Below are positions 2,569-58,740 of a DNA stretch of 64,000 bases, in pieces. Numbering within the stretch: position 1 is the stretch's first letter; each line of letters starts with the position of its first letter. The notes under the pieces are model-generated. The model was not told the origin of the DNA. It worked only from the letters and a program-made list of their open reading frames with translations, and made no database searches. The DNA is from Escherichia coli (GTDB lineage: Bacteria; Pseudomonadota; Gammaproteobacteria; Enterobacterales; Enterobacteriaceae): the NCBI RefSeq assembly GCF_045037415.1, contig NZ_CP173438.1. The stretch is one strand, 5' to 3'. A program made the translations under genes and the position numbers.

Positions 2569-3804
2569 TTACTTATTCACCACCAGCAAATGCGCCTGCA
2601 TAATGTCGCTGGCCGGACGACCGTGCGCCAGCAAATCAACCATTGCTTTAAGATATGGCGGTAGATGGCGGAAATAACGCTGATACCCGGCACACAAATA
2701 ATTCAGCTCGGGTTTGCCGCTGGCATCGAGCATAAAGCGGTGTTTCGGGCAGCCTCCCCAGCACGCTTTTAACACGTTGCAACTGCGACACTGTGCCGGT
2801 AACTGCTTGAATTTATCTTCACCAAATGCCTGCTGTTGCGGGGAATCAATCATTTCTGCAATCATCTGCTGAAGCATATTCCCTAGTCGATACTGCGGAT
2901 AAACATAGTGATCGCAGGCATAAACGTCACCGTTGTGCTCAACAATCACCGAGCGCCCACAGGTTGGCTGATGATGGCAAACCGCGCCCGGTGCGCCGAC
3001 AAAATTGGCGAACGCCCATTCGATATTCATTACGAAAATCTTGCCGACGTCGCGCTTAATCCAGTGGTCGAAAATCGCCACCAGAAACTCACCGAACTCT
3101 TGCGGGCACACCGACCATTCCGTCAGTTCGCCCTGAATATCGCCGGGAGCATGTAGCTTAAGTCCAGCATGAGCAGCCGTTTCATTAGCCAGGCGCTCGA
3201 CCACCGGAATAAACTGGATGAACTCAACACCTGCATCACACAGAAAATCATAGACTTGCAAAGGTTGTAACGCACTGGTGCGATTGACGCAGACCAGCAC
3301 GTTATAGTCGACATGATGTTTTTGCAGGAGCGTCAGGGCACGCATCACCAGCTTATGCGTGGGTCTGCCACCTTTGGTCACGCGATATTGATTGTGGATC
3401 TCAGCCGGACCATCCAGCGATAACCCTACAAGAAAATGATTTTCTGCCAGAAATCCACACCATTCGTCATCGAGCAGCACGCCGTTAGTCTGGAAGCTAT
3501 TACTTATCTTCCTGCCAGCACCATATTTCGCCTGTAGCGCCACGGCACGGCGGTAAAACTCCAGCCCGAGTAACGTTGGTTCGCCGCCCTGCCAGGTAAA
3601 AGCCACTTCGTTTTGGGTTTCGCTGGCAGCGATATAGTGACGGACATACGCTTCCAGCGTGTCATCGTCCATATGCGTGACTGGCTTTTCGTGGTAAAGG
3701 GATTGTTTTTCGAGATAAAAACAGTAGTCACAGTTCAGATTACAATCAGAACCGCTCGGTTTCGCCATCACATGAAAAGCACGCGTTGGAACCTGTTGCT
3801 GCAT
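2569..3804 (-). CDS. aslB: Anaerobic sulfatase-maturating enzyme homolog (radical SAM, CxxxCxxC)
   Basis: ORF track 2569..3834; start trimmed to internal Met (MQQQVPTRAF...); motif CNLNCDYC present. Confidence 0.85.
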   Translation of the reverse strand: MQQQVPTRAFHVMAKPSGSDCNLNCDYCFYLEKQSLYHEKPVTHMDDDTLEAYVRHYIAASETQNEVAFTWQGGEPTLLGLEFYRRAVALQAKYGAGRKISNSFQTNGVLLDDEWCGFLAENHFLVGLSLDGPAEIHNQYRVTKGGRPTHKLVMRALTLLQKHHVDYNVLVCVNRTSALQPLQVYDFLCDAGVEFIQFIPVVERLANETAAHAGLKLHAPGDIQGELTEWSVCPQEFGEFLVAIFDHWIKRDVGKIFVMNIEWAFANFVGAPGAVCHHQPTCGRSVIVEHNGDVYACDHYVYPQYRLGNMLQQMIAEMIDSPQQQAFGEDKFKQLPAQCRSCNVLKACWGGCPKHRFMLDASGKPELNYLCAGYQRYFRHLPPYLKAMVDLLAHGRPASDIMQAHLLVVNK

Positions 3805-3919
3805 GGTCGCTCCTTGCCTGAAGTCATCCTTCAATAAGTTAAGGGCGAAATCATACCGTGGCGCAATGCGTTATTACGGGCGTTTATTGCGAAGGGAAAG
3901 TGACGAAATGCACAGAAAA

Positions 3920-3946
3920 CAAAAAACCCCGCCGAAGCGGGGTTCA
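3920..3946 (-). terminator. Rho-independent terminator downstream of the tRNA operon
   Basis: GC-rich hairpin ccccgccgaagcgggg flanked by an A-run on + (U-run on - strand). Confidence 0.7.
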
Positions 3947-3950
3947 AAAT

Positions 3951-4027
3951 TGGTCGGCGAGAGAGGATTCGAACCTCCGACCCACTGGTCCCAAACCAGT
4001 TGCGCTACCAAGCTGCGCTACTCGCCG
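3951..4027 (-). tRNA. proM: tRNA-Pro
   Basis: Reverse complement gives CGGCGAG...TTCGAATCC...CCA; matches remembered proM. Confidence 0.9.
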
Positions 4028-4069
4028 AAATACTGCTTTTTGAATTTTTAGTTCAATTCTTTAAAGTCG

Positions 4070-4156
4070 TGGTGCGAGGGGGGGACTTGAACCCCCACGT
4101 CCGTAAGGACACTAACACCTGAAGCTAGCGCGTCTACCAATTCCGCCACCTTCGCA
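4070..4156 (-). tRNA. leuT: tRNA-Leu (long variable arm, 87 nt)
   Basis: tggtgcgaggggggacttgaaccccc... is the reverse complement of a class II tRNA-Leu ending CCA. Confidence 0.9.
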
Positions 4157-4175
4157 TTGTCACAACTTCTAATAA

Positions 4176-4252
4176 TGGGGTGGCTAATGGGATTCGAACC
4201 CACGACAACTGGAATCACAATCCAGGGCTCTACCAACTGAGCTATAGCCACC
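4176..4252 (-). tRNA. hisR: tRNA-His
   Basis: Reverse complement GTGGCTATAGCTCAGTTGGTAGAGC...CCA with extra 5' G. Confidence 0.9.
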
Positions 4253-4309
4253 ACTACAAATCTTGTTACGCGGTATTACTACCACCGCAGCTCAAGCGCC
4301 GGGACTAAA

Positions 4310-4386
<77 letters not shown>

Positions 4387-4488
4387 TTAGCGCCGTTGCG
4401 GGGGTGGATAATACGGACTTCCCACCCCTCTGTCTAGTCCCTTTTTAAATAAATTGCGCGTTTGGTTACGGTTTGTGCGTTTTGCTGC

Positions 4489-5874
4489 TTATTCCTCCAG
4501 TTTATGCGCTTTACCGTGGCGATTAAGCCCAAAAACTTTATAAATCGCCGTCACCGTCAGCATAAAGATGATGCCGACAAACAGCGACATACGCGTATCT
4601 TCATTAAAGTACATGCCGATCAAAACGCAAATCAGGAATGCCATTGTTACGTAGTTGGCCCAAGGGAACAGGATTGAGCGGAACGGATGGCTGGCAATTG
4701 CCGCTTTATGCGCACGACGAAAACGCAGCTGGCTAATCAATATCACAAACCATGGCACCATCCCCGGAAGCACGCTGGCACTGTAGACATAGACAAACAC
4801 ACGCTGCGGATTGGGAATGATGTAGTTCAGGCATGAGCCAATTAGCAGAATAGCAATAGATACCGCCACACCCGCAACCGGTACGCCGTGACGGGAAACT
4901 TTCGCCATCGCCGCCGGTAACTGACGGTTTTTCGCCAGTGCATAGAGCATACGTCCGCAACTGTACATGCCACTGTTACAGCCAGAAAGCGCTGCCGTCA
5001 GCACCACAAAGTTAATAATGCCCGCCGCAGCGGTAATGCCGATTTTGGCGAAAGTCAGTACGAACGGGCTGCCGTTGCTGCCTATTTCATTCCACGGGAA
5101 GATGGTAACGATAACGAAAATCGCGCCTACGTAGAAAATCAGGATTCGCCACAGCACCTTGCCTACAGCGCTACGCAGCGTCACCTGCGGATTCTTCGCT
5201 TCACCGGCAGTAATGCCAATCAGCTCCACGCCCTGGTAGGACGCCACCACAATACACAATGCGGTCAGGAACCCTTTCCAGCCACCCGCAAAGAAACCGC
5301 CATGCTCTGTGAGATTGCTAAAACCAATCGACTGCCCGCCATTGCCAAAGCCAAAGAAAATCACGCCCAGGCCAATGACAATCATCACGATAATCGTGGT
5401 GACTTTGATCATCGCGAACCAGAACTCGATTTCGCCGTACAACCTCACCGCAGCCAGATTCGCCAACGCCACCAGCGCCACCGCGATCAATGCGGGTATC
5501 CACTGCGCCATCTCCGGGAACCAGAACTGGACATAAACGCCAATGGCGGTGATTTCTGAGATCCCCACCGCCATCCACATAAACCAGTAAGACCAGGCGG
5601 TGAGATAGCCAAAGAACGGGCTCATATAACGATGCGCGTAAACGGCGAACGAACCGGTAACCGGTTCGAGGAACAACATTTCGCCCATTGAACGCATGAT
5701 GAAAAAGACGAACAGCCCGGCGATGATATAGGCCAACAATACGGATGGCCCGGCCCATTTCAGGGTACTGGCGGCCCCCATAAACAGGCCGACGCCAATG
5801 GTGCCCCCCAGGGCGATGAGTTCGATATGTCGAGCTTCCAGCCCACGCTGTAGCTCTGGTTTGTTATCTGCCAT
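4489..5874 (-). CDS. yifK: Amino acid permease (APC family), 461 aa
   Basis: ORF track; multiple hydrophobic segments; expected position between the tRNA cluster and the ECA cluster. Confidence 0.9.
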
Positions 5875-6064
5875 AAATCCTCGTGTTGTGTTTGCATGCT
5901 TTCCGGTGTTACCGGTTATCGTTATGGGTACATCGAGTGTTGCGAATGTTTTCGTAATTCAGGAGAAATGGCAAATAAAGCATTAAAAATTTGAATGCTT
6001 TGTGTAATAAAAAAGCAGACAGGCGACGGAGTGACCACTTCGTCGCTTTACAAAGAGAGGAAAA

Positions 6065-6805
6065 TCAGAGGTTGCCGGTATAGTGCCAGCGTAAATAACG
6101 CAGCAAACGAAGCTGACGCTTAATGCGGCTCGGCTGCGAAAGCAGGCGGTAGAGCCACTCCAGCCCCAGCGTTTGCCAGATTTTCGGTGCGCGTTTTACG
6201 TGACCGGTGAAAACATCGTAGGTCCCGCCAACGCCCATATACAGCGCATCTGGATGCACCAGACGGCAGTCGCGCATGAAGATCTCCTGCTTTGGCGATC
6301 CCATCGCAACGGTGACGATTTGCGCTCCGCTGGCATGAATGCGTTCAAACAGCGCCTGACGCTGCTCGGGTTTAAAATAACCATCCTGGCTGCCAACGAT
6401 ATTCACATTCCACTGGTTGCGCAGTTTAGCTTCAGTTTGCGCCAGCACTTCAGGTTTACCGCCCACAAGAAATACCGGTGTCCCTTCTTTGCCTGCGCGC
6501 GCCATCAGCTCTTCCCAGAGATCGGCCCCAGCAACGCGGGAAACCTGCGCCTGCGGGTACTTTTTACGTACTGAACGTACAACGCTTATGCCATCCGCAT
6601 ATTTAAATTCGGCAGCGTTAATTAGCTCCCGGACCTCGGCGTTATCTTCAATGGTCAGCATTTTTTCGGCATTAATGGCAACCAGCGTTCCTTGCTTAAG
6701 CTGCCCGTCAGCGAACAGATAATCGAGGGCGTGCTGCATATCACGCCAACCAATCAACTGTAAGCCACGCAGCGTATAGGTCGGTGCCGTGGTGTTGTTA
6801 TTCAT
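6065..6805 (-). CDS. wecG: UDP-N-acetyl-D-mannosaminuronic acid transferase (ECA)
   Basis: ORF track 246 aa; last gene of the ECA cluster. Confidence 0.9.
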
Positions 6806-35917: not shown

Positions 35918-37438
35918 ATGTCACTGTCAATTGTTCATACCCGCGCAGCCCTGGGAGTAAATGCGCCCCCAATCACTGTTGAGGTACATATCAGTAAAGG
36001 TCTACCAGGCTTAACGATGGTGGGCTTACCAGAAACAACGGTAAAAGAAGCTCGCGATCGCGTGCGCAGCGCCATTATCAATAGCGGATATGAATATCCG
36101 GCGAAAAAAATCACCATCAACCTTGCTCCAGCCGATCTGCCAAAAGAAGGGGGACGATATGATTTGCCTATCGCTATTGCGTTGCTGGCGGCCTCAGAAC
36201 AGCTTACAGCCAATAAGTTAGATGAATATGAATTAGTCGGAGAACTGGCGCTTACAGGCGCTCTGCGTGGCGTTCCCGGCGCAATCTCCAGTGCAACTGA
36301 AGCTATTAAGTCGGGCAGAAAAATTATCGTCGCGAAAGATAACGAAGATGAAGTGGGGCTAATTAACGGTGAAGGATGCCTGATAGCCGATCATCTGCAG
36401 GCTGTCTGCGCGTTTCTGGAAGGTAAGCACGCTCTCGAACACCCGAAACCAACTAATGCAGTATCCCGGGCGCTACAACATGATCTCAGTGATGTTGTCG
36501 GTCAGGAGCAAGGAAAGCGAGGACTGGAAATTACCGCCGCTGGCGGGCACAACCTTTTACTGATTGGACCGCCGGGAACAGGTAAAACAATGCTCGCCAG
36601 CCGTATTAATGGCCTTTTGCCAGATTTAAGCAATGAAGAGGCACTGGAGAGCGCTGCGATATTAAGTCTGGTAAATGCTGAATCAGTACAAAAACAATGG
36701 CGGCAACGCCCGTTCCGCTCACCTCATCACAGTGCGTCGTTAACTGCGATGGTGGGCGGTGGTGCAATTCCAGGGCCAGGTGAAATTTCGCTGGCGCATA
36801 ACGGCGTGCTTTTTCTTGATGAGCTACCTGAATTTGAACGGCGTACACTGGATGCCTTGCGAGAGCCGATTGAATCCGGGCAGATCCATCTTTCACGCAC
36901 ACGAGCAAAAATAACCTATCCAGCCCGTTTCCAGCTTGTCGCGGCGATGAATCCCAGCCCTACCGGACATTATCAGGGAAACCATAACCGCTGCACACCA
37001 GAACAGACATTACGTTATCTCAACCGGCTCTCGGGGCCCTTTCTCGACCGCTTCGATCTCTCACTGGAGATCCCATTACCGCCTCCCGGCATTTTGAGTA
37101 AAACGGTAGTGCCGGGAGAAAACAGCACCACCGTTAAACAACGTGTAATGGCCGCCAGAGAGCGCCAATTTAAGCGGCAGAATAAACTGAACGCCTGGCT
37201 GGATAATCCGGAAATACGCCAATTCTGCAAGCTTGAGAGCGAAGATGCGCAGTGGCTGGAAGAAACGCTGATCCATCTGGGGTTATCGATTCGTGCCTGG
37301 CAGCGGTTATTGAAAGTTGCACGAACCATTGCTGATATTGATCAGTCTGACATTATCACACGTCAGCATTTGCAGGAGGCAGTTAGCTATCGTGCGATTG
37401 ACCGTTTGCTCATCCATCTGCAAAAACTACTGACATAA
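35918..37438 (+). CDS. yifB: Mg-chelatase-like AAA+ ATPase YifB/ComM
   Basis: ORF track 35888..37438; start trimmed to MSLSIVHTRAALGVNAPP; Walker A GPPGTGKT. Confidence 0.9.
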   Translation: MSLSIVHTRAALGVNAPPITVEVHISKGLPGLTMVGLPETTVKEARDRVRSAIINSGYEYPAKKITINLAPADLPKEGGRYDLPIAIALLAASEQLTANKLDEYELVGELALTGALRGVPGAISSATEAIKSGRKIIVAKDNEDEVGLINGEGCLIADHLQAVCAFLEGKHALEHPKPTNAVSRALQHDLSDVVGQEQGKRGLEITAAGGHNLLLIGPPGTGKTMLASRINGLLPDLSNEEALESAAILSLVNAESVQKQWRQRPFRSPHHSASLTAMVGGGAIPGPGEISLAHNGVLFLDELPEFERRTLDALREPIESGQIHLSRTRAKITYPARFQLVAAMNPSPTGHYQGNHNRCTPEQTLRYLNRLSGPFLDRFDLSLEIPLPPPGILSKTVVPGENSTTVKQRVMAARERQFKRQNKLNAWLDNPEIRQFCKLESEDAQWLEETLIHLGLSIRAWQRLLKVARTIADIDQSDIITRQHLQEAVSYRAIDRLLIHLQKLLT

Positions 37439-39067: not shown

Positions 39068-39187
39068 ATGCCTGGCAGTTCCCTACTCTCGCATGGGGAG
39101 ACCCCACACTACCATCGGCGCTACGGCGTTTCACTTCTGAGTTCGGCATGGGGTCAGGTGGGACCACCGCGCTAAGGCCGCCAGGCA
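39068..39187 (-). rRNA. rrfC: 5S ribosomal RNA (120 nt)
   Basis: Reverse complement TGCCTGGCGGCCTTAGCGCGGTGGTCCCACCTGACCCCATGCCGAACTCAG...CTGCCAGGCAT. Confidence 0.95.
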
Positions 39188-39287
39188 AATTCTGTTTTAT
39201 CAACACGTCCCGTTATGACCTGTTGATTCAATCTGTTATCAAGCTTACTTATCGATGTCTCTTCCGCCAAAACATCTTCGGCGTTGT

Positions 39288-42191
<2,904 letters not shown>

Positions 42192-42384
42192 TCACAACCC
42201 GAAGATGTTTCTTGCGATTCATCATCGTGTCGCGAAAATTTGAGAGACTCACGAACAACTCTCGTTGTTCAGTGTTTCAATTTTCAGCTTGATCCAGATT
42301 TTTAAAGAGCAAATATCTCAAACATCACCCGAAGATGAGTTTTGAGATATTAAGGCAGGTGACTTTCACTCACAAACCAGCAAG

Positions 42385-42460
42385 TGGCGTCCCCTAGGGG
42401 ATTCGAACCCCTGTTACCGCCGTGAAAGGGCGGTGTCCTGGGCCTCTAGACGAAGGGGAC
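42385..42460 (-). tRNA. gltU: tRNA-Glu in the 16S-23S spacer
   Basis: Reverse complement GTCCCCTTCGTCTAGAGGCCCAGGACACCGCCCTTTCACGGCGG...CGCCA. Confidence 0.9.
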
Positions 42461-42545
42461 GTATCAGTCTGCTTCGCAAGACGCCTTGCTTTTCACTTTC
42501 TATCAGACAATCTGTGTGAGCACTGCAAAGTACGCTTCTTTAAGG

Positions 42546-44087
<1,542 letters not shown>

Positions 44088-44212
44088 AAAAGTTTGATGC
44101 TCAAAGAATTAAACTTCGTAATGAATTACGTGTTCACTCCTGAGACTTGGTATTCATTTTTCGTCTTGCGACGTCAAGAATCCGTATCTTCGAGTGCCCA
44201 CACAGATTGTCT

Positions 44213-52710: not shown

Positions 52711-54579
52711 TTAGATTTCGACCTGAGTACCCAGTTCGATAACTCTGTTTGGCGGGATTTCAAATTGATCCGGTGCCCGCAGCGCATTACGTTGCAGCAG
52801 CAAGTACAGCTTGCCGCGCAGACGCAAATACCACGGGCGTTTGCCGAGGATCAACGACTCATGCGACATAAAGAAGGAGGTTTCCATCATCCGGCAGCTT
52901 AATCCTTCCAGACCGCAGCGGTGGAAAACTTCTTCCACGTTTGGCGTTTCTCGCCAACCATAACTTGCCACCACGCGCCAGAAAGTGGGCGACAGTTGTT
53001 CAATCTGTACCCGACGGACGTTATGGACATATGGCGCGTCTTCGGTGCGCAGAGTTAACAGAATCACCCGCTCATGCAATACCTTGTTATGTTTAAGGTT
53101 ATGCATCAGCGCAAAGGGAATGACGTTGATTGCACGCGACATATACACCGCGGTCCCAGGCACGCGAACGGGCGGTGATTTCTCCAGCGAAGCAATCATC
53201 GCTTCCAGAGAGTTACCATGTTCATGCATCCGCCGCAGCAAGCGGAAACGCTCGCTCTTCCAGGTGGTCATCACGATAAACATCACCGTACCGAGGCTCA
53301 ATGGCAACCAGCCACCGGAGAGCAGTTTATCGAGGTTAGCGGTGAACAAGGGAATATCGACACAAAGGAAAGCAATCAGGATCAGCGCAACAAAATACTT
53401 ATTCCAGTGCCAGTTCTGACGTGCCACGGTAGTCGAGAGAATAGACGTCAGCACCATGGTTCCGGTCACCGCAATCCCGTACGCCGCCGCCAGGTTGCTG
53501 GAGTGCTCAAAGCTGACAATCACAATCACGACCGCGACATAGAGCATCCAGTTCACAAAGGGAATATAGATTTGCCCTGACTCCATTTCGGAGGTGTGAA
53601 TAATGCGCATCGGCGACAAATATCCCAGACGTACCGCCTGACGCGTCAATGAGAAGACGCCAGAGATAACCGCCTGCGAGGCAATTACCGTCGCCAGTGC
53701 GGCGATGATCAGCAGCGGGATCAGCGCCCAGTCCGGTGCCAACAGGAAGAACGGGTTCTTAATCGCTTCCGGATTCTTTAACAACAGCGCTCCCTGGCCG
53801 AAGTAATTAAGGGTTAAGGAAGGCAATACGACGGTGAACCACGCCAGACGAATAGGGAACTTACCAAAGTGCCCCATATCAGCATACAGCGCCTCGACCC
53901 CCGTAATCGACAGCACCACTGCCCCTAATGCAATAAAAGAAACCGTTTTGTATTCAAGGAAGAAATGCACCGCCCACATCGGATTCAGTGCATGCAGCAC
54001 TTCCGGGTTAGCAATAATGCTACGTAACCCCAGCCCTGCCAGAATCAAAAACCAGGTCAGCATGATCGGCGCAAACAGCTTACCGACCATAGCTGTGCCA
54101 TGTTTTTGAATCATGAATAATAATGTGAGAACGATAATTGAGAGGGGAACTATCCAGGTATCCAGCTGCGGGGCGACGATTTCCAGACCTTCAATGGCGG
54201 ACATCACCGAAATAGCGGGAGTAATGACGACTTCACCATAGAAAAAGCTGCCGCCGATTAGCCCCATAATCACCAGCATTGATGTGGTTCGCGCCGACGT
54301 ATTACGCCCGGCAAGCGACATCAACGTCAGGATCCCCCCTTCACCGGCGTTATCTGCCCGCATCACGAAGGTGAGATATTTAATGGAAACCACAAAGATT
54401 AGCAGCCAGAAGATCAGCGATAAAAAGCCAAACACGGCATCGCGTTCAACGCCAAAACCAAACTGGCCGGACAAACATTCACGAAGTGTATATAACGGGC
54501 TGGTACCAATATCGCCGTAGACAACTCCAATCGCCGCGAGGGTAATCGCGGGCAATGATTGCTTATTATCAGTGCTCAT
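52711..54579 (-). CDS. kup: Low-affinity potassium uptake protein Kup (622 aa)
   Basis: ORF track; [32 protein letters not shown]. Confidence 0.95.
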
Positions 54580-54801
54580 AGACTAGTCTTTCGTTGAAAT
54601 ATGAAATGTGTGCTTAGTCCCTTGGCCCACAAAAAAGCGCACAGTATGCACGATTAACGGCAAAATCGTACTCCTAAATGCGGCCACATTAACCTGGCTC
54701 AAAGAAAAATACCCCTCCTTTGAGACTATTTTAGCCACCAGCAAGAAACGTCTATACTCGCAATTTACGCAGAACTTTTGATGAAAGGACGCCACTTCAT
54801 T

Positions 54802-56298
54802 ATGGCTCACCCTCATTTATTAGCGGAAAGAATTTCCCGCCTGAGCAGTTCGTTGGAAAAGGGGCTTTATGAACGTAGCCACGCCATCCGCTTGTGTTTA
54901 TTAGCGGCATTAAGTGGTGAAAGTGTGTTCCTCCTTGGCCCACCAGGTATTGCCAAAAGTTTGATCGCCCGGCGCTTAAAATTCGCCTTTCAGAATGCCC
55001 GCGCGTTTGAATATCTGATGACCCGCTTCTCCACGCCGGAAGAAGTTTTTGGTCCCCTTTCTATTCAGGCGCTAAAAGATGAAGGGCGCTATGAACGTTT
55101 AACCAGCGGTTACCTGCCGGAAGCTGAAATCGTCTTTCTGGATGAGATCTGGAAAGCGGGTCCGGCAATTCTTAATACCTTGCTCACCGCCATTAACGAG
55201 CGCCAGTTCCGCAACGGCGCACTCGTAGAAAAAATCCCGATGCGTCTGCTGGTGGCGGCCTCCAACGAGCTGCCGGAAGCAGACAGCAGTCTGGAAGCGT
55301 TATATGACCGCATGCTGATTCGTCTGTGGTTAGATAAAGTGCAGGATAAAGCGAATTTCCGCTCCATGCTGACCAGTCAACAGGATGAAAATGACAATCC
55401 GGTTCCTGCCTCCTTGCAGATCACAGATGAAGAATATGAACGCTGGCAGAAAGAGATTGGTGAAATTACGCTGCCCGATCATGTATTTGAGCTGATTTTT
55501 ATGCTGCGCCAGCAACTGGATAAATTACCGGATGCGCCTTATGTCTCGGATCGTCGCTGGAAAAAAGCGATCCGCTTATTGCAGGCCAGCGCCTTTTTTA
55601 GCGGTCGCAGTGCTGTTGCCCCGGTTGATCTCATTTTGCTGAAAGATTGCCTGTGGTATGACGCGCAAAGCCTGAATTTGATACAACAACAAATTGATGT
55701 ATTGATGACCGGTCATGCCTGGCAACAGCAAGGGATGTTGACCCGCCTGGGCGCGATTGTGCAACGTCACCTGCAACTCCAGCAGCAACAAAGCGATAAA
55801 ACAGCCTTAACGGTAATTCGTCTGGGCGGCATTTTCAGCCGTCGTCAGCAGTATCAACTTCCTGTTAACGTTACTGCTTCCACTCTGACTCTGCTGCTGC
55901 AAAAACCGTTAAAATTGCATGATATGGAAGTGGTTCATATCTCCTTTGAGCGTAGCGCGCTGGAACAGTGGCTGAGTAAAGGTGGTGAGATTCGCGGCAA
56001 ACTGAACGGTATCGGCTTTGCCCAGAAACTGAATCTGGAAGTGGATAGCGCCCAACATCTTGTTGTACGCGATGTAAGTTTACAAGGCAGTACGCTGGCA
56101 CTTCCCGGTTCATCGGCTGAAGGTCTGCCAGGTGAAATAAAACAACAACTGGAAGAGCTTGAAAGCGACTGGCGCAAGCAACACGCTTTATTCAGCGAAC
56201 AGCAAAAATGTCTGTTTATCCCTGGCGACTGGTTAGGTCGCATTGAAGCCAGCCTACAGGATGTCGGCGCACAGATTCGCCAGGCACAACAATGCTAA
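54802..56298 (+). CDS. ravA: MoxR-family AAA+ ATPase RavA (498 aa)
   Basis: ORF track 54778..56298; start trimmed to [14 protein letters not shown]; Walker A GPPGIAKS. Confidence 0.9.
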
Positions 56299-57743
56299 CG
56301 CTGGATACGCTTAATGTGATGCTGGCCGTCAGCGAAGAGGGATTGATCGAAGAGATGATCATCGCGCTGCTGGCCTCACCGCAGCTGGCAGTCTTCTTTG
56401 AAAAATTCCCACGACTGAAGGCGGCAATCACTGATGATGTTCCCCGCTGGCGTGAGGCGCTGCGCAGTCGGCTGAAAGATGCCCGAGTCCCGCCGGAACT
56501 CACCGAAGAGGTGATGTGCTATCAGCAAAGCCAGCTCCTCTCCACGCCGCAGTTTATTGTGCAGCTACCACAGATCCTGGACTTACTGCATCGTCTGAAT
56601 TCCCCATGGGCAGAACAAGCCCGACAGTTGGTTGATGCTAACAGCACGATCACTTCAGCGTTACACACGCTTTTTCTCCAGCGTTGGCGTTTAAGTCTGA
56701 TCGTGCAAGCAACGACGTTAAATCAACAGCTATTAGAAGAAGAACGCGAACAACTGTTGAGTGAAGTTCAGGAACGCATGACGCTGAGCGGACAACTTGA
56801 ACCGATTCTCGCAGATAACAATACCGCAGCTGGTCGTCTGTGGGATATGAGCGCCGGTCAGCTTAAACGTGGCGACTATCAGTTGATTGTGAAATACGGT
56901 GAATTTCTTAACGAACAGCCGGAACTGAAACGCCTGGCAGAACAGCTGGGGCGTTCCCGGGAAGCCAAATCAATACCGCGCAACGATGCGCAGATGGAAA
57001 CCTTCCGCACCCTGGTGCGCGAACCGGCGACGGTTCCTGAGCAGGTTGATGGTCTGCAACAAAGCGATGATATTTTACGTCTCCTGCCGCCAGAACTGGC
57101 GACACTAGGGATAACAGAACTGGAGTATGAGTTTTACCGTCGGCTGGTGGAAAAACAGTTGCTCACCTATCGCCTGCATGGTGAGTCGTGGCGTGAAAAA
57201 GTGATCGAACGCCCGGTGGTGCATAAAGATTACGACGAACAGCCGCGCGGACCGTTTATTGTCTGTGTGGATACTTCCGGCTCAATGGGCGGCTTTAATG
57301 AACAGTGTGCGAAAGCGTTCTGCCTGGCCTTGATGCGCATTGCTCTCGCTGAAAACCGGCGCTGCTATATTATGCTATTTTCCACCGAGATCGTCCGTTA
57401 TGAGCTTTCAGGCCCACAAGGCATCGAACAAGCAATCCGTTTTTTAAGTCAGCAGTTTCGTGGCGGCACCGATCTTGCCAGTTGTTTTCGCGCCATTATG
57501 GAACGCTTGCAAAGCCGGGAATGGTTTGATGCCGATGCGGTGGTGATTTCTGATTTTATCGCCCAGCGGTTGCCTGACGACGTGACGAGTAAAGTGAAAG
57601 AGCTACAGCGGGTACATCAGCATCGCTTTCATGCCGTGGCGATGTCTGCACATGGCAAACCCGGCATCATGCGCATTTTCGATCATATCTGGCGCTTTGA
57701 TACCGGGATGCGAAGCCGCCTGCTCAGACGCTGGCGGCGATAA
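56292..57743 (+). CDS. viaA: VWA-domain protein ViaA (483 aa)
   Basis: ORF track; 7-bp overlap with ravA. Confidence 0.9.
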
Positions 57744-57747
57744 ATTA

Positions 57748-58740
57748 TTACAGCAGAGAAGGGACGCTCTCGCGAACAGCTGCCGGCCATACACCACACT
57801 GAACCTGGCCGATATGTGGCAGTTGCAGCAGCAGCATGGTCAAACGAGACTGCCCGATACCGCCGCCGATGGTCTGCGGCATTTCACCGCGCAGCAGCGC
57901 CTGATGCCACTCCAGCTCCAGGCGATCTTCGTCACCGGTCAGCGCCAGCTGATGCTTCAGCGTGTCGGCATCCACGCGGATCCCCATGGAAGAAAGCTCA
58001 AACGCATCTTCCAGTACCGGGTTCCACACCAGAATATCGCCGTTCAGACCCGCATGGCCCAGCTCTGACGGGGTGCTCCAGTCATCATAATCCGGTGCGC
58101 GCACGTCGTGACGATGACCATCACTCAACTTGCCGCCAATCCCGACGAGGAATACCGCGCCAAGATCTTTCGCAATCGCCCGCTCACGCCCTTTGGCATC
58201 GAGATCCGGATAACGAGACAGTAACTCCTGGCTGTGTACGAAGTGGATCTGATCCGGCAGGAACGGTGCCAGGCCAAACTCTTTGCTAACCGCAGCTTCG
58301 GTTGCTTTAATTCCCGCCCAGATCGCCTCTACCGTGCTTTTCAGAGTCGAGAATTGACGCTCGCCGTCGCCCATTACGCGTTCCCAGTCCCACTGGTCTA
58401 CATAGACCGAGTGCAACGGGGAAAGACGGTCTTCATCGGGGCGAAGGGCTTTCATGTGCGTGTACAGCCCTTCGCCCGCGCTGAAGTCGTGTTGCCCTAA
58501 GGTCTGACGTTTCCACTTCGCCAGTGAATGAACCACTTCGAACTGGGCATCAGGCAGAGCTTTCACTTTTACCTGCACCGCTTTTTCACAGCCCGACAAG
58601 TTATCCTGCGTGCCATCCCCCACACGGCTAAGAATCGGCGCCTGGACTTCGATCAGCCCCAGACGTTCTTCCAGTTGACGAGAAAAGTGAGATTTCACGA
58701 AGCTAATTTGACGTTGTTTGGCAATGTAAGCGGTTTTCAT
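57748..58740 (-). CDS. asnA: Aspartate-ammonia ligase (asparagine synthetase A, 330 aa)
   Basis: ORF track; [38 protein letters not shown]. Confidence 0.95.

Follow-up and report, generated by a model that had tools for sequence, protein, structure and literature searches.

This analysis concerns the ravA-viaA operon of Escherichia coli, found at positions 54802 to 57743 of a 64,000-nucleotide stretch of DNA (contig NZ_CP173438.1), which is called the window in what follows. The best explanation of the two genes, and one that I hold with considerable confidence when it is taken as a whole, is that they make up E. coli's chromosomal ravA-viaA operon, the allele being one that strains such as 81009, H105 and 4/1-1 share. 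The identity of both genes, considered by itself, is essentially certain. This is an ordinary, intact and already known core-genome operon, and no new finding is made in it. What gives the operon weight is that it determines how effectively aminoglycosides kill E. coli under anaerobic, low-energy conditions, and that its molecular client is disputed.

The two genes and their junction lie as follows, where VWA stands for von Willebrand factor A:

54802-56298, + strand: ravA, 498 amino acids, ATG start; the MoxR-family AAA+ ATPase RavA
56292-57743, + strand: viaA, 483 amino acids, ATG start; the VWA-domain partner of RavA
56292-56298, + strand: ravA/viaA overlap, ATGCTAA, 7 bp; the same in K-12

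A preliminary description, made from the sequence alone, had given the two genes these coordinates, this strand and a 7-bp overlap, and it agrees exactly with the list of open reading frames (ORFs), with the junction sequence and with RefSeq. The mechanical ORF of ravA starts with a TTG at 54778, 8 codons upstream of the annotated ATG at 54802, where the N-terminus of RavA (MAHPHLL) begins. The junction reads CAA CAA TGC TAA, with the ATG of viaA at 56292-56294. In a 100%-identical genome, RefSeq and its Prokaryotic Genome Annotation Pipeline (PGAP) place ravA at 3223-4719 and viaA at 4713-6164, which correspond to 54802-56298 and 56292-57743 in the window, and they also annotate the convergent asnA at the matching position. 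There are no internal stops in either gene, both ORFs are full-length, and viaA lies immediately 3' of ravA on the same strand, as it should in an operon.

There are few doubts to be raised about what the two proteins are. RavA matches the NCBIfam equivalog NF010054 with 991 bits (cut-off 681; E = 1e-298) over residues 1-498 of 498, and ViaA matches NF008230 ('ATPase RavA stimulator ViaA') with 878 bits (cut-off 500; E = 2e-264) over residues 1-483, scores that exclude chance. RavA is a MoxR-type AAA+ ATPase of the RavA subfamily, having the core, the lid, the LARA domain and the RavA C-terminal domain as well as the equivalog match. The preliminary description had called it a MoxR-type AAA+ ATPase and had suggested a domain search as a check. 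The Pfam search bears it out, together with the Walker A and B motifs: bpMoxR (PF20030) gives the best score, 5e-56, and there are matches to AAA_5 (2.4e-27), to AAA_lid_8 (PF17868, 5e-22, residues 227-298) and to the RavA C-terminal domain (PF12592, 1.8e-23, residues 444-497). The protein matches the solved structures PDB 3nbx and 6q7l over its full length, 494 of its 498 residues being those of K-12 RavA, and the structures of the LdcI-RavA cage that match it are 6q7l, 4upb, 4upf and 5fl2. Its motifs and its LARA domain are placed as follows:

54937-54960, + strand: Walker A, GPPGIAKS, residues 46-53 with K52; fits GxxGxxK[ST]; the identical motif is quoted in PMC3893208
55129-55146, + strand: Walker B, IVFLDE, residues 110-115 with D114 and E115; fits hhhhDE
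55804-56109, + strand: LARA domain, residues 335-436; Pfam PF20265, 1e-39; PDB 4upf/5fl2

The arginine finger R170 and the trans-acting sensor 2 R251 are both present, and both are named as ADP-coordinating (PMC6987120). LARA is RavA's domain for binding LdcI and has also been reported to bind phosphatidylglycerol (PMC9489729; PMC10585395). RavA is described as a hexameric clade-7 AAA+ ATPase (PMC6987120; PMC10585395). A protein that shares 494 of 498 residues with one known to form hexamers and to hydrolyse ATP under stimulation by ViaA would be expected to do both.

ViaA is a VWA protein with a complete metal-ion-dependent adhesion site (MIDAS), and it is the partner of RavA. The same preliminary description had predicted a VWA protein with the motif DxSxS, and this too is upheld, by Pfam and by the presence of DTSGS at residues 327-331 along with T393 and D421. 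The Pfam matches are to VWA_CoxE (PF05762, 2.2e-10) and VWA_2 (PF13519, 1.5e-8), over residues 320-457, and both exceed their gathering scores. When the VWA domain alone was compared with PDB sequences, only marginal matches were obtained (E >= 0.27), among them a marginal alignment with the Ro60 VWA domain that sets GGTD in register. The parts of ViaA are these:

56292-56864, + strand: N-terminal domain (helical, 'VAN' fold), residues 1-191; 100% identical to PDB 7ugc, a nuclear magnetic resonance (NMR) structure; limits from PMC10585395
56865-57224, + strand: middle domain, residues 192-311; limits and reported stimulation of the RavA ATPase from PMC10585395
57225-57740, + strand: C-terminal VWA domain, residues 312-483
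57270-57284, + strand: MIDAS motif DxSxS, here DTSGS, residues 327-331 (D327, S329, S331)
57468-57470 and 57552-57554, + strand: distal MIDAS residues T393 and D421
57702-57740, + strand: arginine-rich C-terminal amphipathic helix, residues 471-483, with R476 and R479 both present

The last of these is the reported binding site for phosphatidic acid (PA) and cardiolipin (PMC9489729).

If these motifs matter, they should persist in distant relatives. Orthologues were sampled by scanning species-representative genomes with a DNA pattern back-translated from the Walker-A peptide of RavA. The loci were thus picked by an exact Walker-A peptide, and conservation of Walker A in them is true by construction. 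The scan gave 120 loci, from genera that include Vibrio, Photobacterium, Aliivibrio, Aeromonas, Moritella, Yersinia, Serratia, Pectobacterium and Proteus, and further Providencia, Photorhabdus, Xenorhabdus, Edwardsiella, Hafnia, Pantoea, Erwinia, Citrobacter and Enterobacter. A tblastn search over these loci found RavA in 119 and ViaA in 96; among the first ten loci listed, the single one that has no ViaA match stops about 120 bp past the RavA match. Wherever both were found, viaA is downstream of ravA on the same strand, and 67 complete pairs come from other gammaproteobacterial species. The adjacency of the two genes spans Enterobacterales, Vibrionales and Aeromonadales.

Within the 67 complete pairs, residues D114, E115, R170 and R251 of RavA are invariant (67/67), and so are the five MIDAS residues of ViaA, D327, S329, S331, T393 and D421 (67/67). 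R476 of ViaA is kept in 65 of the 67, and the same number (65/67) have R or K at position 479. The comparative contribution made here is modest: over 67 species ViaA shows essentially no variation either in the full MIDAS or in the basic C-terminal helix. Their joint invariance favors models in which ViaA needs a metal-mediated contact with a ligand and, in addition, an anchor in the membrane.

The junction between the genes is a different matter. An overlap of 7 nt was seen in 17 loci, and the titles among those listed are E. coli, Citrobacter, Enterobacter, Leclercia, Kluyvera, Mangrovibacter and a metagenome-assembled genome from Enterobacteriaceae. The overlap is 4 nt in 10 loci and 1 nt in 6, including Escherichia albertii, and most of the others have a gap of 0-14 nt. 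Counted over the complete pairs, 21 overlap, 37 have a gap of 0-14 nt, 8 a gap of 15-100 nt and 1 a gap of more than 100 nt, so that the genes overlap or are separated by no more than 14 nt in 58 of 67. An overlap of exactly 7 bp is a detail local to the enterobacteria. Other Gammaproteobacteria, such as Vibrio cholerae (PMC10848872), share with the window the two-gene, same-strand arrangement, and there is no variation between them and the window in Walker B, the arginine finger, sensor 2 or the full MIDAS. They differ in that the Vibrio-type RavA is longer, about 540-548 amino acids as opposed to 498, and in that the Vibrio-type junction is a gap of 9-12 nt furnished with its own GGAG ribosome-binding site, whereas the genes in the window overlap. 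Identity to the proteins of the window drops to 33% for RavA and 18% for ViaA. Sensitization to aminoglycosides by RavA-ViaA has been described for E. coli and V. cholerae alike (PMC10848872). In the locus from Vibrio gelatinilyticus, the Walker-A pattern of RavA occurs twice on one strand, at 2121-2149 and 5497-5525, 3.4 kb apart, which suggests two tandem RavA-like paralogues.

Within E. coli the operon is a core-genome feature. The 3.2-kb stretch that contains it matches many E. coli chromosomes at 100% identity, those of 4/1-1, 81009, H105 and E41-1 among them. Of 5426 complete E. coli genomes, 5422 have a match to it, which in 5414 covers at least 80% of its length, and the match is chromosomal in every case. 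The closest characterized proteins are K-12 RavA (b3746, PDB 3NBX/6Q7L) and K-12 ViaA (b3745, PDB 7UGC), with which the window shares the lengths of 498 and 483 amino acids, the 7-bp overlap, all the motifs and the neighbors, these being kup upstream (- strand, ATG at 54579) and the convergent asnA downstream. DNA identity to K-12 is 98.3% for ravA and 98.4% for viaA. In ravA 26 of 1497 nucleotides differ and four codons are changed (H141L, D203A, A204S and V207I). In viaA 23 of 1452 differ and one codon is changed (M241L, in the middle domain), leaving 482 of 483 residues identical. Change that is mostly silent points to purifying selection on functional genes. All five residues that differ from K-12 occupy positions that are hypervariable among the 67 orthologous pairs, and the five substitutions are therefore most likely neutral.

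The gene junction and the 3' end are identical to those of K-12, and the 222-bp spacer upstream of ravA carries two single-nucleotide polymorphisms (SNPs), at 54716 and 54782. The second of these, C in K-12 and T here, turns ACG into ATG at 54781-54783, in frame and 7 codons before the annotated start of ravA. Use of this ATG would extend RavA by MKGRHFI. No Shine-Dalgarno sequence precedes it, and PGAP retains the start that gives 498 amino acids.

How the operon is expressed can be considered from the same spacer, in which three features stand out:

54580-54801, + strand: kup-ravA divergent intergenic region, 222 bp, from the kup ATG at 54579 (- strand) to the ravA ATG; holds the native ravA promoter
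54689-54702: FNR-like box TTAACCTGGCTCAA, 7/10 consensus positions; the best site in the spacer
54752-54758, + strand: CTATACT, a candidate -10 element of sigma-S type, 44 nt ahead of the ATG; TATACT 5/6, weak -35 3/6; from a relaxed scan

A fragment published as the 'native ravA promoter' comprises the 206 bp directly upstream (PMC3893208), and the sequence of its forward primer is present here. The two genes are reported to be co-transcribed from the region upstream of ravA, in a manner dependent on sigma-S aerobically and on Fnr anaerobically (PMC3893208; PMC10585395), and the operon has later been described as Fnr-controlled (PMC9489729; PMC9973319; PMC10585395). CTATACT may well be the -10 element used by sigma-S, in line with the reported dependence (PMC3893208; PMC10585395). 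The FNR-like box could not be called by its sequence alone, since the FNR consensus with up to 3 mismatches is matched 262 times in the whole window, as against 240 times expected by chance. The case for it rests instead on a published peak from chromatin immunoprecipitation followed by sequencing (ChIP-seq), whose center (U00096.2 3929221) maps to about 54697, within 2 bp of the center of the box. All peak callers detected that peak, and an earlier ChIP-chip study had seen it as well (PMC3688515 Table S5). Myers et al. also observed higher anaerobic occupancy by sigma-70 at the kup-ravA spacer (PMC3688515). When the literature was searched for a mapped Fnr site or transcription start of the operon, only noise came back. 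Rfam (at the gathering threshold over the whole window, and with E <= 1 over 54400-58000) gave no match in or beside the operon except a meaningless one to a nematode snoRNA (E = 0.76).

As a signal for translation, ravA carries AGGA 12 nt from its ATG, and the ribosome-binding site of viaA is weak, no more than AGG 7 nt upstream. This agrees with reports that copy numbers are low, about 350 RavA and about 90 ViaA per cell (PMC3893208). A 77-aa ORF on the - strand (54583-54816) fills the whole spacer, ends 3 nt before the kup ATG and is open in K-12 too. It is probably spurious, since the annotation lacks it and the two spacer SNPs relative to K-12 are both non-synonymous within it.

What, then, does the operon do? 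The preliminary description had said that its physiological role is incompletely understood, and the literature concurs, in the words 'enigmatic' and 'not yet well established' (PMC9489729; PMC10585395). Several pieces of the mechanism are nonetheless on record. The middle domain of ViaA binds RavA at its triple-helical domain and raises its ATPase activity about 3-fold (PMC10585395). Through its arginine-rich C-terminal helix ViaA attaches to PA and cardiolipin at the inner membrane, and mutants defective in lipid binding lose gentamicin sensitization during fumarate respiration (PMC9489729). The operon raises uptake of aminoglycosides, gentamicin among them, dependent on proton motive force, and killing by aminoglycosides, in low-energy anaerobic states that include fumarate respiration (PMC9973319). 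A persistence phenotype dependent on fumarate reductase (Frd) requires all three domains of ViaA and the ATPase activity of RavA (PMC10585395). According to published data, the ATPase-dead RavA K52Q does not retain the phenotype of the operon (PMC3893208; PMC10585395). Finally, RavA binds LdcI through LARA, forming a cage (PMC9489729; PMC10585395).

I propose that these pieces fit together in the following way. The start/stop overlap, with the weak ribosome-binding site of viaA, would couple the synthesis of ViaA to the translation of ravA and keep it sub-stoichiometric (per cell, about 90 molecules of ViaA to about 350 of RavA). ViaA would then act as a membrane-tethered adaptor, anchored to anionic lipid by its C-terminal helix, and its invariant MIDAS face would hold the client, most likely the flavoprotein of fumarate reductase, FrdA, or else another subunit of a respiratory complex. 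Its middle domain would recruit and activate the RavA hexamer, which would spend ATP in remodeling the client or the surrounding lipid. That both contacts of ViaA, the one through MIDAS and the one with lipid, matter is argued by the joint invariance of MIDAS and basic helix across the 67 species. At the level of the client, I rate the mechanism as only a little better than an even bet, because the client is disputed between laboratories.

A number of observations weigh against this proposal or parts of it. In biolayer interferometry, Felix et al. detected no direct interaction with purified FrdA or NuoEFG (PMC9489729), and El Khoury et al. found the activities of Frd and of Nuo (Complex I), as well as growth on fumarate, to be unaffected (PMC9973319). 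The Houry laboratory, on the other hand, reports direct binding of ViaA to FrdA and inhibition of Frd, and did not reproduce the binding of lipid by LARA (PMC10585395), which is the substance of the dispute over the client. I infer translational coupling from geometry only, and a 7-bp overlap is not required, as judged by the many orthologues that have a short gap and a Shine-Dalgarno sequence of their own. As for expression, Myers et al. found the FNR peak and no FNR-dependent change in expression, in glucose minimal medium (PMC3688515 Table S9), and a scan for the sigma-70 consensus on the + strand upstream of ravA found no promoter.

An alternative view dispenses with a protein client. RavA (by LARA and phosphatidylglycerol) and ViaA (by the C-terminal helix and PA or cardiolipin) would act on lipid microdomains of the membrane, and the effects on respiration and on aminoglycoside uptake would be secondary to changed membrane properties. 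This possibility deserves attention, although I consider it rather unlikely. Lipid dot-blots, localization to the membrane and enrichment of cardiolipin upon overexpression have been reported, as have chromosomal mutants in lipid binding that lack gentamicin sensitization, and the failure to detect binding to purified FrdA or NuoEFG is what pure lipid remodeling would lead one to expect (PMC9489729). The conservation of the basic helix of ViaA across 67 species is equally to its credit. It is too much to expect of helix-lipid binding, however, that it should explain five MIDAS residues invariant in 67 of 67 pairs, which argue for a metal-mediated contact with a protein or an acidic ligand. Overexpression was moreover the setting of most of the lipid effects, and the Houry laboratory saw no binding of lipid by LARA and found the contact between ViaA and FrdA to be direct, through ViaA's C-terminal VWA domain (PMC10585395). 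A role in acid stress faces a similar objection. On this account RavA cages the inducible lysine decarboxylase LdcI, five RavA hexamers with two LdcI decamers, and shields it from inhibition by guanosine tetraphosphate (ppGpp), while ViaA is a mere stimulator of the ATPase. The LARA domain is indeed present and intact, structures of the LdcI-RavA cage match the RavA of the window (PDB 6q7l, 4upb, 4upf, 5fl2), and there is a literature on LdcI-RavA (PMC9489729; PMC10585395). Yet the middle domain of ViaA suffices to stimulate the ATPase (PMC10585395), and a mere stimulator would therefore need neither the adjacency of viaA in every evaluable species nor an invariant MIDAS. The aminoglycoside and persistence phenotypes do need ViaA (PMC9973319; PMC10585395), and the cage was characterized in vitro (PMC9489729). 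I think it improbable that acid stress is the main business of the operon.

Better defined systems of the same type offer a different precedent. In NorQ/NorD of Paracoccus denitrificans and other MoxR/VWA pairs, as in RavA-ViaA, a AAA+ ATPase is paired genetically with a VWA/MIDAS adaptor directed to a respiratory-type client (PMC9976466). NorQ/NorD-type systems have a defined client and reaction, insertion of iron into cNOR, whereas no client-level reaction is established for RavA-ViaA; relative to such pairs, RavA adds LARA and the RavA C-terminal domain, and ViaA adds the VAN-fold N-terminal domain. RavA-ViaA might likewise be a chaperone for cofactor insertion, maturing iron-sulfur (Fe-S) or flavin respiratory enzymes such as Complex I. 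NorQ/NorD, which puts non-haem iron into nitric oxide reductase, is the general precedent for MoxR/VWA pairs (PMC9976466), the Pfam match to VWA_CoxE sets the VWA domain of ViaA near CoxE-type proteins, and RavA-ViaA interacts with Nuo subunits and is linked genetically to Isc Fe-S assembly and to cysteine biosynthesis (PMC3893208). V. cholerae does without Nuo, however, and nevertheless has both RavA-ViaA and the phenotype (PMC9489729). No positive effect on the activity of Nuo or Frd was found (PMC9973319), and such effect on Frd as has been reported is inhibitory (PMC9489729; PMC10585395). I would be quite surprised if this were the answer. The notion that the two genes are decayed, mis-called or chance ORFs in this strain has practically nothing left to it, being refuted by ORFs of full length, equivalogs matched end to end, mostly synonymous changes relative to K-12 and intact motifs, and by DNA 100% identical to many independent assemblies.

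The AAA+ core of RavA scores best, 5e-56, against PF20030 (bpMoxR), the family of the MoxR-vWA-beta-propeller ternary systems. Membership in such a conflict system was considered and rejected: there is no third, beta-propeller gene, and the convergent asnA comes 4 nt after viaA. The match reflects shared MoxR ancestry, not membership in the system. PADLOC defence models gave no meaningful match to either protein, the only hit (E = 0.0067, 12.9 bits) being noise.

The boundary with asnA is of some interest in itself. The stop of viaA (TAA, 57741-57743) is separated by 4 nt from the stop of asnA on the opposite strand (57748-57750, - strand), and no terminator-like hairpin was found between the two stops or just past them, which implies that each transcript must end within the other gene. 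Within viaA there is an extended -10-like sequence, TGcTATATT, at 57363-57371 (+ strand), and CATAAT on the - strand at 57374-57369. TGcTATATT may be an intragenic or antisense promoter. A sigma-70 ChIP-seq peak 'within viaA', stronger anaerobically (PMC3688515 Table S2), maps to about 57388, some 20 bp from it. By microarray, the mRNA of asnA was altered both by deletion and by overexpression of ravA-viaA (PMC3893208). Stops only 4 nt apart without a hairpin, a -10 near a sigma-70 peak and the changes in asnA mRNA together prompt the idea that viaA and asnA regulate each other in cis, read-through or intragenic transcription giving antisense RNA on asnA, or the reverse. I put it forward as a long shot. 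If it were true, asparagine synthesis would be tied to the anaerobic expression of ravA-viaA.

The window as a whole is the region near oriC, running through aslA, the enterobacterial common antigen (ECA) cluster, rho, ilv, rrnC, rbs, kup, ravA-viaA, asnA, asnC, mioC and mnmG up to atpB. One assertion of the preliminary description, that ravA-viaA is the least-characterised functional unit in it, does not hold. RavA and ViaA appear together in 102 papers, several of them dedicated to the pair, and crystal, cryo-electron microscopy and NMR structures exist for RavA/ViaA. Far less studied is yifB, which has 40 mentions, none of them in a title among the eight top-ranked, and which is the better candidate for that description. 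It lies at 35918-37438 (+ strand in the window) and encodes a second AAA+ protein, a Mg-chelatase-like ATPase of the YifB/ComM family.

The window also holds yieP, a major facilitator superfamily gene annotated mdtD, aslA/aslB and a truncated hypothetical protein. It starts, over positions 1-192, inside a gene for a 'hypothetical protein' (WP_001260226.1), beside the GlmZ small RNA at 192-398. Over its whole length it differs from strain 4/1-1 by 8 SNPs, 7 of them in the rRNA-operon region (39184-44140), and by one 1-bp homopolymer indel. The tRNA-Leu(CAG) at 4071-4156 (- strand) is 86 nt long, with 7 C's in the run of the T-stem and acceptor where 4/1-1 has 8 (87 nt), and it scores only 40.8 bits with Rfam. 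The likeliest source of this difference is a sequencing error at the homopolymer in one of the assemblies; otherwise the window contains a damaged copy of leuT.

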